Source: an uncultured Gammaproteobacteria bacterium (GTDB taxonomy: Bacteria > Patescibacteriota > Microgenomatia > JAMCZE01). Taken from it: DNA of 64,000 nucleotides. Within the stretch, counting starts at the first letter, position 1; each line of letters opens with the position of its first letter. The translations under genes and the position numbers were made by a program. Below are positions 1-9,221 of the stretch, in pieces. The notes under the pieces were generated by a model. That model worked only from the letters and a program-made list of their open reading frames with translations, was not told where the DNA came from and did no database searches. Location: positions 681,795-745,794 of the forward strand of contig CAZXMM010000001.1 in the NCBI GenBank assembly GCA_964641255.1. Direction: 5' to 3'.

Positions 1-1379
1 CTGATTAATAGGTGAGATATCGTGTGCAGCAATATATATTCAGGAGTCATTAAATCAACGGTAGCAAAAACATCAGGATGCTTTCTGAAACGTTCTATCA
101 AGAGCCTGCTTCTTTCCTGAACTTCAGGTTTCGATGACCATTCCTTTAACTTTTCAGGATCAAAGTCAAGAAAGATTCCTTCCCCTCTTACTTCGAAACC
201 GGGACGCCATCTGACCGATCTGTCATCGGAGACAGACACTTCCTCGGTTTTTTCTGCTGATCCTTCTTCAGGCTCACCTGTTGAATATTCCGGCGGTCTG
301 ATCCGAGCAAATCCTGTTTGCACCCTTATTTCTCTTAGTCTCTTCACCAGGACAACTTTATTAAGCTGCGGGATTCCGTATTTATCACCGGAAATAGGTT
401 CAATTTCAAAGTCAGGTTCATTGCAACCTTTTCCTATAAAAGCCCTATACTCGTCATACCTGTATTGTTCTTCGGATCTTTCAGTTTGACCGTTAAGTTC
501 ACCTTCTTCCATTTCCCTGATCGCATCCAGAACGGCTGTTAGCTTTTCTTCAATTTCATCCGCAACCAGAGCTGCAACAGTTTTAACATCAAGTCCGCCC
601 TCCTGAGATTCATACACCTGCCATGCCCTGGTATTCGAAATTTTCGTCTTAAGACTATCGGAAGTAAAAGGCGGGATGAGAATAGAACTTTTTACGATCG
701 GAAAGTGTACATTTGTCCCACCTCTCAATAAACCGGTTAACTCTTCACCACAGCCTTCCTCCCACTTATTAACCCATGGTTTTGATCCTTTACATCTCAC
801 CACGGCCGATAATAGTTGTTTATTAAATGCTCCTCTCATACTTCTTTTTTCTTTGCAGGTTTTGCAGGAGATGGTAATTCCGGCCAATGAAGCAGATCTT
901 CCGCTTTCGCCGTATTTCAGATCAGGTTTTGGGCACGACTTATCGGAATGAACCCATTCAACGTAGGGAAAATCATCAATGTGACCTTTTCTGCATGCCA
1001 CTACAAATCTTGAGGGGATTAGGGGTACTGAGCAATTATGACAAAACGGACGCCAATGAAAATCGCGTTCAGGCCGGGCTTTAACAGCTAACTCCTCCCA
1101 TTCAGAAATCGTTTTTAATGCTCCGCAGGATCTGCACCTCATCCATCTCGGAAACCTTATCACCCTGATTCCGTCTTTTGACTGATCTGTATCGGGAGGC
1201 ATGATGAAATACGGAGCGCCTAACTTTCTTTCAAGTCTCGGATCGCTGAGGTGAGGTGCGCCGCGTGTGTCCCATTTTTCAATACCGCACACCATAACCG
1301 AAGCATCGGGAAGATCCACTATGGATCCTACCCCGAATACTGTTATTGTTTGACTTCTTCTTAGTGTAGGTTTCGGCAT
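1..1379 (-). CDS. Cys-rich zinc-ribbon protein, DUF1998/DrmB-like; partial, C-terminus lies beyond window start
   Basis: Unlisted minus-strand ORF translated by hand from ATG at 1379..1377 with no stop before position 1 (MPKPTLRRSQTITVFGVGSIVDLPDASVM...). Several CxxC pairs (RCRSCG, CHNCS, CKTCK). Starts 6 nt after the stop of the upstream helicase gene. The N-terminal RxSQ..FGxGs.vDL pattern matches my recollection of DUF1998 proteins. Confidence 0.5.
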   Translation of the reverse strand, partial: MPKPTLRRSQTITVFGVGSIVDLPDASVMVCGIEKWDTRGAPHLSDPRLERKLGAPYFIMPPDTDQSKDGIRVIRFPRWMRCRSCGALKTISEWEELAVKARPERDFHWRPFCHNCSVPLIPSRFVVACRKGHIDDFPYVEWVHSDKSCPKPDLKYGESGRSASLAGITISCKTCKEKRSMRGAFNKQLLSAVVRCKGSKPWVNKWEEGCGEELTGLLRGGTNVHFPIVKSSILIPPFTSDSLKTKISNTRAWQVYESQEGGLDVKTVAALVADEIEEKLTAVLDAIREMEEGELNGQTERSEEQYRYDEYRAFIGKGCNEPDFEIEPISGDKYGIPQLNKVVLVKRLREIRVQTGFARIRPPEYSTGEPEEGSAEKTEEVSVSDDRSVRWRPGFEVRGEGIFLDFDPEKLKEWSSKPEVQERSRLLIERFRKHPDVFATVDLMTPEYILLHTISHLLI

Positions 1380-1385
1380 ATAAGT

Positions 1386-4300
1386 TTAACTGTAATCCAT
1401 ACTGACATAGCACTCTGCATCAGTATTTCTTAACGACTGAGGGGTGGCATATATACCTTTTGTTTTATCCCCAGGTCTTCTTAATAAAGGAATTTTTTCG
1501 GAATTCCGGATATTCTCATAAGAGATACCTGTTTCCAGCTGCTGCAGCTCTTTTATTCTGTCTACTAAGGCAGATATATCAGCCTCTGCAGTCTCAATTT
1601 CGGCGGGGTCAACCACAGATACCCTTGCCAAAATTTTCTGAATTAGTTCCTGCATCTCAGCTGAACCGGCATCAAATTTTGCCAGGGAATCATTCGTTGC
1701 ATATCCGAGCATATGTCTTATGAGAATAATGAGAACAGCGTGAAGTGCTTTATTGCGTACAGGTGACGAGAACGGGGTGACGCTGGTCGGTTCTACGTAC
1801 CGGTATAGTGCCTGATGATACTTAATAAATTGCTCGAAATGAGATCTGTCTCTGCTTTTTACCGGACTGTAAAGAGTTACAACCAGCCCGGGATAACTAC
1901 GTCCGACCCTACTGGAAGCCTGAATATATTCAGAAGTGGTTTTAGGTTGTCCCAGAACCATCATCAATCCCAGCCGGTTAATATCAACACCGACAGAGAT
2001 CATATTGGTTGCCAGAAGTACATCGATTGCCTCCCGGGACGGATATTTAATCTCAAGCTTCTGTAGTATCTCAGGAATCGTTTCTGCCGGAATCCGGCTC
2101 GTAAGTTCTTCTACGGCTTTATCACTGTAGTATCTGGGTTTTACACCAAGGCGGTCTGACAGGCGTTTGGAATATTCTTTGACGTCATCATAAATGATAC
2201 TTTTGGAAGTGCCAAGTTCGCGGATGCTATTACAGTAAACTACCTGAGTCCAGTACTTATCCTTCACATCATCATCCGCTTCCAGTAACTCCACTCCCTG
2301 GATAGAATCCGCAAGCAAACGCACCTGCATGGTTGTAGATGTTTTGCCTGACGGCATCACTCCCACATAAAGTCTCCCTGGTGTGATCTTACTAATTTCG
2401 GATTCTTTAGCAAAGAAAGAATCCTCCGAGTTTAATCCGGGTGCAGGAAATTGTCTTACCTGTCTGGCATAGAGTGATCTGCACTGATCCTTGGATCTTC
2501 TGATAGTTGCCGTAGATGCAATAATTTTCGGTCTTAAACCTTTACGGCTGCAGAGTAGATCTATTGCCGTCTCATATAGTCCCACCATTGTTCCCAACGA
2601 ACCGGAAATCAGATGAAGCTCATCCTGAATTATCAGTTCCGGAGAGGGGTTATTATTTCCCTGATTAAGTGCAAAAATTGAAGATGCATCTGCTTTCCAG
2701 GCAAGCATTGCAAACTTATCTACAGTTCCGAAAAGTAAAGTAGGGGGTTCCCTGTATATATCTTCATCAACAATCTTTAAAGGCAATCCGTCGTGGAAGT
2801 CACAATGTCCATTCGGACACCAGATTTCAAATCTTTTAGGTCCGGTTCTGATTCTGTATCCGAAAGTTCCTCGTCCTTCTTTTCTGACTAGGTGAGTTCC
2901 GCACCACGGGCAGTGCAGTACCTGAAAAGGGTTTTTTCCTGATCCGTCACGCTGGCGAAGCAGTTCATCAAGCTTCTCTCCGGCATCTTTAAGAGTATTC
3001 GGTGATGAAGCACTTCCAAGCCATTGTCCGATTGTGATCTGTTCTCCTCCCATACCGACATTCCTACGCAATTTTTCACAGGCGCATATAAGTGTGCATG
3101 CACGCTGAAATTGTTGAGAAGTTAATAAACGGAGAGTGTAACGCATTAGTACAGTTGTCCCTCCTGAATTATCGGTTCCGGTTCTTCTCATAAAAATAAC
3201 AAAAGCGGTAAGTGCGAGGTATGCTTCTGTCTTTCCGCCTCCGGTCGGAAACCAGATCAGATCTACCAGGTCCCTATCACCGGATGAGGGATCTGCGATA
3301 CCGGCAATATTAAGTAGTAAAAAGGCTATCTGAAAAGGACGCCAGACATGATCATTAGTGTTGTAGTTATAGTCAGGTGCATAGTGTTCATCAGGAAAGT
3401 GTTTAACCTCCTGCTCTTTACTGTGAACGCGCTGCATAAGCATAGCTTTATTAGCGAGCCTAAAGCAATTCAACACTCTGTCGTTAGTATTCAACAAGTC
3501 GATACCTCTACCAATCCTTGATGCTGACTCCCTGCAGAGTCTAATATGCATTTCCGCCGGAACCTTCAGGTGAGGCGGGAGAGTCTCTGATTCCTTATTG
3601 AGAGCGGAAATCCACTTCTCATATAACGAATGCAAACCCCTTAAGTCATTAATTACCATGGCTTTTTCGTCATCGGCAAAATGTCTCATTGAAAGATCGG
3701 GGTAATTTTCCTCTGAAGCTTTCAATCCGAAATCTACCTGAGGAATGATATAACTTGGTAAATGGTCAGTCATTACCTCAGTAGCAAAACCCTCATTCTT
3801 TCCGGCTTTCCAGGAGGCTGACGTACCGTGTCCTGTAGCAAAAAAGTTTTTATTTCTGTAAAGCAGTTGAAGTGACTTTTCTTCCGGATCAGAACCTTCA
3901 AAATAATTCTTATCCCTGAATGGGTGAAACACCGGTTTTCCGCTATCACTACTCAGTTTTAATGCAATCTGATAATAAGATTTTTCATTATCGAGCTGGC
4001 GGACAGCTGTTTCCTCATTAACCACCGTTGCGGTACAGATTAGCAGGTCTGTTCCCGGATCGGTTTTCGACGTAAAAACAACGGCCAGGTGTTCGTCCGG
4101 AATACTGTGCCTGCTGTATCCAGCGAGGGGATTTACTTTAATAATGGAATTTACTGGAAGGCGTTTCCACCCCTGATCAGCAAGATTTGATAGCCGGTAA
4201 AGGCCATCCCTTAGTGTACCTTTTTCCGTTAAATTCAATAGCCTGTTTCTGGTTTCAGGGTCAATAGGTTTTTTCAGTACGATCCGGCCGTCACTGTATG

Positions 4301-9017: not shown

Positions 9018-9035
9018 AATAATTTATTAAGTGTT

Positions 9036-9221
9036 TTAGGCATTGTTTTCGGAATTTTTATTACTGATAAACTTTTCAATATCTTCTTTTCTATAACGCC
9101 TGACTTTTTTCACCCCTATTCTCACTGCCTTCAGTACTCCTTTTTTATCCCACAAACGGAGGGTATTGGGGTGGACTTTAAGAATTCCGGCGGTTTCGTG
9201 CAAAGTAAGAAGTTCTTCCAT
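9036..9221 (-). CDS. Excisionase/MerR-type HTH DNA-binding protein, 61 aa
   Basis: LTLHETAGILKVHPNTLRLWDKKGVLKAVRIGVKKVRRYRKEDIEKF matches the excisionase-family HTH pattern. Lies 18 nt upstream of the operon on the same strand. Confidence 0.65.
   Translation of the reverse strand: MEELLTLHETAGILKVHPNTLRLWDKKGVLKAVRIGVKKVRRYRKEDIEKFISNKNSENNA

Follow-up and report, generated by a model that had tools for sequence, protein, structure and literature searches.

Introduction

The restriction-modification-associated defence island system DISARM is a widespread defence system whose killing step is unresolved. In the class 2 system of Bacillus paralicheniformis, the genes are ordered drmE-drmA-drmB-drmC-drmMII (Ofir et al. 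2018; summaries in 10.1101/2021.12.28.474362, PMC9252829). Class 2 DISARM needs DrmA, DrmB and DrmE; the methyltransferase DrmMII marks self DNA and its loss is toxic, and DrmC, a phospholipase D (PLD) nuclease, is dispensable (10.1101/2021.12.28.474362). DrmA and DrmB of Serratia form an autoinhibited helicase complex, DrmAB, which loads on single-stranded DNA (ssDNA) at 5' overhangs and whose ATPase activity is dampened by methylated DNA (PMC9142583). DrmC does not co-purify with DrmAB and is often missing from operons, and the same authors treat the acting nuclease as an open question and DNA degradation as a mystery (PMC9142583). A survey of the YprA helicase family mentions 'many uncharacterized DISARM-like classes' and describes DISARM as 'typically' carrying the PLD protein DrmC (PMC12458937). 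DrmC is also mandatory in the type II definition published for PADLOC (PMC9252829). Here we describe a DISARM-type locus at the start of a 64,000-nucleotide (nt) stretch of DNA, hereafter the window, from an uncultured Gammaproteobacteria bacterium (GTDB lineage Bacteria; Patescibacteriota; Microgenomatia; JAMCZE01; assembly GCA_964641255.1, contig CAZXMM010000001.1, positions 681,795 to 745,794 of the forward strand). Its core resembles that of class 2, and a NERD nuclease fused to a superfamily 1 (SF1) helicase, hereafter the NERD-helicase, probably stands in for DrmC.

Results

A class 2-type DISARM core without DrmC

Positions 1-9221 hold, on the minus strand, four complete open reading frames (ORFs) and one open frame of 459 codons that leaves the window at position 1:

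1..1379, minus strand: drmB, of whose 596 codons the first 459 are included; the remainder, with the DUF1998/MZB zinc domain, is located beyond the window start
1386..4727, minus strand: drmA, 1113 aa, a YprA-family helicase of the superfamily 2 DExH type (PADLOC, Pfam and 7S9V_A)
4741..6456, minus strand: 571-aa fusion of a NERD (PD-(D/E)xK) nuclease with an SF1 helicase (Pfam and PADLOC), the component that distinguishes the variant
6459..9017, minus strand: drmE, 852 aa (Pfam DrmE_C and PADLOC DrmE)
9036..9221, minus strand: HTH_17/MerR-type DNA-binding protein, 61 aa (Pfam), 18 nt upstream of drmE in the same orientation

The gaps along the series HTH/drmE/NERD-helicase/drmA/drmB measure 18, 2, 13 and 6 nt, which bears out the five packed genes with 2 to 18-nt gaps reported in the preliminary description, a reading of the letters made before any database search. 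Promoter and terminator scans of the locus gave counts not above those of shuffled sequences.

The two core DISARM components are both present, a DrmA helicase with pfam00271 and, directly after drmA, a separate gene for a DUF1998-containing DrmB. The 1113-aa protein matched the PADLOC DrmA model (1.2e-226), Pfam Helicase_C (5.2e-9) and DEAD, and the solved Serratia DrmA structure 7S9V_A (1.9e-166), and it retains helicase motifs I, II, III and VI (GGGKT at 496, DELH at 702, TAT at 739 and QASSRVGR at 936). An acidic segment near its N terminus (about residues 44-85) aligned weakly with the trigger-loop region of Serratia DrmA. The DrmB fragment within the window matched the PADLOC DrmB model at 1e-34. 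Its full-length version (L001:13349-15139, 596 aa), taken from a contig described below, matched the same model at 1.5e-78 and Pfam MZB/PF09369 at 1.2e-8 (residues 455-555). It also aligned with Serratia DrmB (7S9V_B) across residues 4-587 (1.5e-95), which supports the ATG at 1379 as the drmB start. Matches of both proteins to DISARM-specific models and to the Serratia complex thus sustain the earlier proposal of a DISARM-type locus built on a DrmA/DrmB core. That proposal was to fall if the 1..1379 frame had no DUF1998 match; the fragment indeed gave no PF09369 match in Pfam, trivially, because residues 455-555 of 596, which form the domain, are encoded past position 1; the complete protein does contain it.

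The sequence past position 1 was recovered from a 235-kb Logan contig (L001), whose reverse strand is 100% identical to window positions 1-14727 and which reaches 8.6 kb further. There, L001:15052-16173 encodes a 373-aa C5-cytosine methyltransferase convergent with drmB (PF00145, 1.9e-86; best PADLOC match DrmMII, 2.4e-113), with motifs FxGxG, PCQ and ENV, so that the methyltransferase expected beyond the window does exist as drmMII. The 3' ends of drmB and drmMII overlap by 88 nt (L001 15052-15139), and the same convergent overlap recurs at the related loci L029, L031, L033 and L034; the C-terminal tail of the methylase encoded in this overlap is of low complexity. A Vsr endonuclease (4.4e-24) follows the methyltransferase, and further on come several unannotated small genes, YceG and an extracytoplasmic function (ECF)-type sigma factor, together with the beginning of a GpA-type terminase. 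The other expectation, a PLD gene past position 1, was disappointed: neither the operon genes nor the 8.6 kb beyond the window contain a PLD/DrmC match (Pfam, PADLOC), and the third core DISARM component, the pfam13091 PLD nuclease DrmC, is therefore missing.

The 852-aa protein upstream of drmA, which had been taken for an unrelated protein sitting in the DrmE position, is the class 2 component DrmE itself, as identified by its matches to Pfam DrmE_C (PF24957; 2.2e-16, residues 631-801) and PADLOC DrmE (4.5e-11). Both class 2 markers are hence in place, DrmE upstream of drmA and, outside the window, DrmMII (pfam00145). DrmE occupies the same position at L029, L031, L033, L034, L005 and L126, and the family is fast-evolving. 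A DrmE profile search against PDB sequences returned no match, and an AlphaFold2 (AF2) model built on a five-sequence alignment was too poor for a fold search (mean predicted local distance difference test score, pLDDT, 56). DrmE was also considered as a degenerate SF1 helicase and rejected (hhalign probability 0.1% against UvrD-like helicases of the type C loci described below, 1.3% against the NERD-helicase).

Comparison with described systems

As in class 2 DISARM, the locus has intact DrmE, DrmA, DrmB and C5 methyltransferase DrmMII, with drmA and drmB as separate neighbours in a tight operon on a mobile island. It departs from the described class 2 gene set, as had been supposed. It has no DrmC, and the 571-aa NERD-helicase is placed between drmE and drmA; in addition, its methyltransferase is convergent, overlaps the drmB 3' end and is followed by vsr. 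Because the PADLOC type II rule demands DrmC, the locus fails this strict definition. With class 1 DISARM (Serratia sp. SCBI, 7S9V/7S9W) it shares the DrmA and DrmB homologues (1.9e-166 and 1.5e-95), the acidic segment in the trigger-loop region and the presence of a second helicase gene. Unlike class 1, it is without the SNF2 helicase DrmD, the N6-adenine methylase DrmMI and DrmC, and its DrmA is about 210 residues shorter at the N terminus, where class 1 has an EVE-like domain (PMC12458937). No gene of the locus matched an SNF2 helicase or an N6 methyltransferase in Pfam or PADLOC, which places it outside class 1.

ARMADA type II (ArmA-D) likewise combines a YprA-family helicase, a methyltransferase and an SF1/UvrD helicase with an N-terminal nuclease-type domain, ArmD being a RelE-like RNase joined to a UvrD helicase (PMC12458937). 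By contrast with the locus, where helicase and DUF1998 module are split genes, the methylase is of the C5 Dcm type and the nuclease is NERD, ARMADA has a helicase-DUF1998 fusion, a PglX-like methylase and a BrxHII-like helicase; PglX and BrxHII found no match among the locus genes (Pfam, PADLOC), and the locus is not ARMADA. The same fusion of an N-terminal PD-(D/E)xK nuclease to a C-terminal SF1 helicase is found in RTasNERD-Hel, associated with UG34 reverse transcriptases (PMC9226505), and in the 'NERD+UvrD' protein of type III CRISPR systems. Unlike these stand-alone, reverse transcriptase- or CRISPR-linked genes, the NERD-helicase is here fixed in DrmAB operons, its DISARM-linked relatives form clades of their own, and no reverse transcriptase or CRISPR gene lies nearby. 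Nhi is another gene that joins an N-terminal nuclease to an SF1 helicase.

An intact nuclease-helicase

The preliminary description had recognised the extra NERD nuclease/SF1 helicase gene correctly: the 571-aa protein matched Pfam NERD (6.4e-12, residues 15-112) and, in its C-terminal part, ResIII, PhoH, UvrD_C and SLFN-g3_helicase. Its best PADLOC match, over the full length, was RTasNERD-Hel (3.1e-49), and 'NERD+UvrD' matched at 1.2e-13. Nuclease residues D52, E65 and K67, the Walker A motif GTGKT (236-240; lysine K239) and the DEGQD motif show no variation across 16 homologues, some with as little as 38% identity. Relatives number in the thousands, with a uniform length of about 570-585 aa, and several come from Saccharibacteria or Patescibacteria (one of them L005). 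A search against PDB sequences gave no match; an AF2 model was usable (pLDDT 81.6), and its top Foldseek matches in the PDB were SLFN11/SLFN14 (human, nuclease plus SF1 helicase), UvrD, Upf1, RecD2 and Dna2. The modelled fold confirms a generic SF1 motor, and since the search yielded only generic SF1 helicases, translocation polarity is not assignable.

The cassette recurs in unrelated contexts

The block DrmE-NERD-helicase-DrmA-DrmB, together with a C5 methyltransferase, was present in six of six sampled loci (the window and relatives at 71, 48, 45, 45 and 39% identity), and none of the six contained a PLD gene. In the sampled relatives, the proteins measure 848-870 aa (DrmE), 1113-1128 aa (DrmA) and 603-613 aa (DrmB). 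Their surroundings are mutually unrelated: a conjugative element, two serine-recombinase islands, a verrucomicrobial contig and the cultured Firmicute Alkaliphilus hydrothermalis. One of the serine-recombinase islands consists of the recombinase and the five cassette genes only, amid actinobacterial housekeeping genes. Scanning species-representative genomes with a NERD-helicase alignment recovered at least 25 distant relatives, with 24-36% identity. Roughly half adjoin DrmA/DrmB, and these DrmAB-adjacent genes belong to Gammaproteobacteria, Actinobacteria, Patescibacteria, Verrucomicrobiota, Firmicutes and others. With the same cassette widespread in genome and metagenome loci, the notion of a one-off oddity does not hold. 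Among 2.9 million viral contigs, 9 DrmB relatives were found, some at loci of type A or C (defined below). At one locus (L011 9995-11735, an Acidimicrobiaceae metagenome-assembled genome), the NERD-helicase gene upstream of drmA is broken up into three ORFs, by decay of the copy or by assembly frameshifts.

Three architectures link the NERD-helicase to DrmAB

To survey the DrmB side, metagenome contigs were scanned with an 11-sequence DrmB alignment, and the 80 closest loci (34-55% identity) of more than 594 matches were annotated with our own ORF calls and hidden Markov models built from the loci in hand; 55 of the 80 were informative. As they were chosen for similarity to the window DrmB, these loci are a non-random sample. 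They fall into the following architectures:

Type A, 19 loci: (DrmE)-NERD-helicase-DrmA-DrmB, the order of the window
Type B, 10-11 loci: DrmE-DrmA-DrmB-NERD-helicase, with the gene in the canonical drmC slot and a DrmB about 170 aa longer
Type C, 8 loci: UvrD-like helicase-DrmA-DrmB-NERD-helicase, without DrmE
Type D, 14 loci: DrmE-DrmA-DrmB, without NERD-helicase
Other architectures, 3 loci

A NERD-helicase adjoins DrmAB in 38 of the 55 informative loci (69%), in three architectures; a C5 methyltransferase occurs in 42 and Vsr in 21 of the 55. PLD genes were sought by Pfam scans of selected ORFs and by phmmer with the DrmC of L114. Among genes downstream of drmB in type D and other loci, Pfam detected one PLDc_2 gene, at the class 1-like locus L114, and two HNH_2 endonucleases; phmmer with the L114 DrmC found no other PLD in about 115 related loci. 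Each HNH_2 gene lies right after drmB in a DrmE-DrmA-DrmB locus devoid of NERD-helicase (L062 6868-7581 and L083 11953-12687), and HNH_2 may be a third alternative nuclease for the drmC slot.

Type B DrmB proteins measure about 775-791 aa versus about 615 aa, and the extra ~170 residues, which correlate perfectly with a downstream NERD-helicase, might form a docking domain for it. Long DrmB proteins of type B were recorded at L044, L045, L047, L051-L053, L058, L063, L075, L081, L022 and L023. In type C loci, a UvrD-like SF1 helicase without NERD domain takes the place of DrmE, so that two SF1 helicases flank DrmAB; this organisation was noted at L009, L026, L043, L048, L050, L064, L073, L093, L102 and L115, and L009 also carries a helicase-HD fusion. 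At two loci, methylation-dependent restriction genes accompany the cassette: L004 carries, between drmB and vsr (10707-11891), an enzyme that combines AspBHI-N with Mrr_cat, and in L031 a gene with SAD_SRA and HNH_2 domains comes directly after the methylase (18676-19527). These loci pair defences against unmodified DNA with defences against modified DNA.

Neighbour-joining trees, which are rough and were computed on our own ORF calls, relate these architectures. The DrmA tree (69 full-length sequences) sorts cleanly by architecture, with type C as one clade and type A as a large clade; the window subgroup, also of type A, is sister to a clade of types D and B. The NERD-helicase tree unites types A and C in one large group and sets type B in a second, and loci without DrmAB branch deeply. 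Among sequences with full flanks in the A/C group, only L010 is without DrmAB; L007 is a DrmE-NERD-helicase pair cut by the contig end. Because both trees sort by architecture, the NERD-helicase appears to have been inherited with DrmAB rather than sporadically inserted. Along the type A loci, identities to the window proteins drop in step for NERD-helicase, DrmA and DrmB, with values of 71, 48, 45, 46, 36 and 34% for the NERD-helicase and of 85, 54, 54, 53, 40 and 38% for DrmA. The NERD-helicases of types B and C are far more diverged than their DrmAs, which suggests more than one recruitment or faster evolution.

The small HTH gene and the surroundings of the operon

The region upstream of the operon contains three further features:

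9235..9274, no strand: two tandem 20-nt direct repeats (repeat search), a candidate operator
9362..9411, intergenic, in the divergent region: strong hairpin with 22-nt arms (repeat search)
9432-11321, plus strand: weakly portal-like ORF, 629 aa (weak phrog and Pfam matches)

The 61-aa protein matched Pfam HTH_17 (9.9e-10) and MerR_1 (2.4e-8), with mad1 as its best PADLOC match (1.1e-10). The preliminary description had counted this gene as part of the system, and here we disagree, as no HTH homologue was found within 700 nt upstream of drmE in the 37 other loci checked. It is a locus-specific add-on outside the conserved cassette, probably a regulator or an excisionase-like protein. The tandem repeats (ACAACTGACACCAATAGAAT / ACAAGAGATACCAATAGTTT) lie 14-53 nt upstream of its start codon and are a candidate operator for it.

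The arms of the hairpin are 86% complementary around a 6-nt loop and are followed by TTTTTGTT on the plus strand, about 20 nt upstream of the start of the portal-like ORF; from its sequence, the element looks like a plus-strand terminator or insulator. The ORF itself matched phrog_332 'head-tail adaptor' (1.2e-13), SU10_portal below the Pfam cut-off (4.4e-6) and, weakly, one of 50,697 phage records. The operon does adjoin this ORF, as first reported, but the identification as a phage portal gene rests on weak matches, and we call it portal-like only. Genes on the opposite strand flank the DISARM operon, the portal-like gene on one side and a GpA-type terminase fragment (L001 23174-23342) on the other, and between the two lie the ECF sigma factor, YceG and unannotated small genes, also on the strand opposite to the operon. 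The phage-like flanking genes may represent a degraded prophage or satellite-like element carrying the system. The rest of the window is chromosomal (P-type ATPase, HflK, GlgA at 54451-55992, glucan phosphorylase, tRNA). Named relatives of this GlgA come from Gottesmanbacteria, Amesbacteria, Saccharimonadia and other members of the Patescibacteria group, which points to a Patescibacteria (CPR) bacterium as the probable host. The window also includes, at 32000-48000, a run of plus-strand ORFs with an unusually high AT skew (0.12-0.28), one of 1437 aa at 42946-47259; the three ORFs tested from this run gave no NCBIfam match.

Discussion

On the basis of intact nuclease and ATPase motifs, co-inheritance with DrmAB, the conserved block and the missing PLD gene, we think it probable that the locus is a complete, DrmC-less DISARM of class 2 type, with the NERD-helicase as an integral motor-nuclease effector. 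The preliminary description had left open an undescribed DISARM derivative or a new system on the DrmAB core; we found no description of the arrangement for DISARM, and the core, now including DrmE and DrmMII, turns out to be an ordinary one of class 2 type. The DISARM core is thus known, and what appears to be new is the conserved, probable effector swap to a NERD-helicase. Full-text literature searches, whose scope did not extend to the supplements of the original 2018 DISARM description, found no work linking a NERD-helicase to DISARM, DrmA/DrmB or DUF1998.

In the mechanism that we propose, DrmMII would methylate a host motif and so mark self DNA, and Vsr would repair the T:G mismatches that arise from deamination of 5-methylcytosine. 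DrmA, the DExH helicase, and DrmB, an OB-CON-DUF1998 zinc module, would form the DrmAB complex and load on free ssDNA or 5'-overhang ends of unmethylated incoming DNA, a step shown for the Serratia class 1 complex only and transferred here by homology. This logic of marking and sensing is applied to the locus because its DrmAB is homologous and the acidic N-terminal segment of its DrmA aligns with the trigger-loop region. DrmE would be required, as shown for the Bacillus class 2 system only. Finally, the NERD-helicase, to judge from its motifs and its co-inheritance, would replace the PLD nuclease DrmC: powered by ATP, this motor nuclease would degrade the DNA that DrmAB has engaged.

Several observations weigh against an effector tied to DrmAB. 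The wider NERD-helicase family also occurs without DrmAB (12 deep-branching genome loci, and genes associated with reverse transcriptases or type III CRISPR), which makes it a portable module that may act alone; the 14-locus type D clade devoid of the gene indicates that it is not obligatory for the DrmAB/DrmE core; and among distant pairs (DrmA below 50% identity), NERD-helicase and DrmA divergence are weakly correlated (r = 0.23, not significant). The coupling of the NERD-helicase to DrmAB and DrmE, be it physical or functional, is one that we infer from sequence.

In an alternative that we consider unlikely, though a serious contender, a DrmC-less class 2 DISARM would be self-sufficient and the NERD-helicase would be an independent 'embedded' defence gene that shares its regulation and mobility, not its mechanism. 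DISARM frequently holds embedded genes, mostly other defence systems and 96.7% of them co-oriented, and such genes also occur in Hma, bacteriophage exclusion (BREX) and type I restriction-modification loci (Payne et al., 10.1101/2024.01.29.577857). The NERD-helicase is likewise nested and co-oriented, has relatives outside DISARM, both beside reverse transcriptases (PMC9226505) and in a model for a type III CRISPR accessory, and is dispensed with by the type D loci; moreover, DrmC is dispensable in the DISARM systems tested, so there is perhaps no nuclease to replace. However, its presence is clade-fixed rather than sporadic, which argues against an embedded gene: in the DrmA tree it is fixed across entire clades, and the DISARM-linked NERD-helicases form clades themselves. 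Its slot is also unchanged in several phyla, over identities of 34% to 71%, and its linkage to DrmAB persists across three gene orders with tight or overlapping junctions. None of the PADLOC 'PDC' models for embedded candidates matches it; PADLOC model identifiers were looked for in the supplements of Payne et al., and none was found.

It is improbable, in our view, that the NERD-helicase is integral without being the nuclease effector, serving instead as a second sensor or translocase comparable to class 1 DrmD or ArmD while DrmAB translocation mainly accounts for the block to phage replication. Class 1 DISARM and ARMADA do each pair a YprA-type helicase with a second helicase, type C loci surround DrmAB with two SF1 helicases, and according to a proposal by Bravo et al., a replication block may be how DrmAB works (PMC9142583). 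Yet the invariance of the NERD catalytic triad in 16 diverse homologues argues for a nuclease activity under selection, and the type B gene sits exactly at the drmC position of canonical class 2. That the helicases instead serve housekeeping repair, as RecQ, Lhr or MrfA/YprA types do, within a chromosomal neighbourhood that is conserved, the outcome named beforehand as fatal to a DISARM assignment, is hardly credible. Although the YprA family of DrmA/DrmB also includes the repair helicase MrfA (PMC12458937), the best matches are DISARM-specific models and solved DISARM proteins, the locus contains the partners DrmE and DrmMII, and two genes encode the helicase and the DUF1998 module, a hallmark of DISARM (PMC12458937). 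The context comparison refutes this reading, with a neighbourhood that is different at every locus examined and mostly mobile.

Returning to the NERD-helicase as an integral effector, we put at even chances the broader proposal that DrmAB operons with this gene (types A, B and C) constitute a large unrecognised DISARM class, 'class 3', prominent in tiny-genome Patescibacteria, with the PD-(D/E)xK motor nuclease as the true DNA-degrading effector. Because type II detection rules require DrmC, many real systems would be misfiled. If true, such a class would explain why DrmC is dispensable or absent and would give the first genetically tractable handle on the destruction of phage DNA by DISARM: the intact NERD-helicase gene of clade-fixed DrmAB operons is a testable candidate for the effector, and the cassette of Alkaliphilus hydrothermalis makes experiments feasible. 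For the organism itself, probably a Patescibacteria bacterium, a DISARM island of about 11 kb would amount to roughly 1% of a genome of about 1 Mb, which bears on how much ultra-small genomes invest in immunity.

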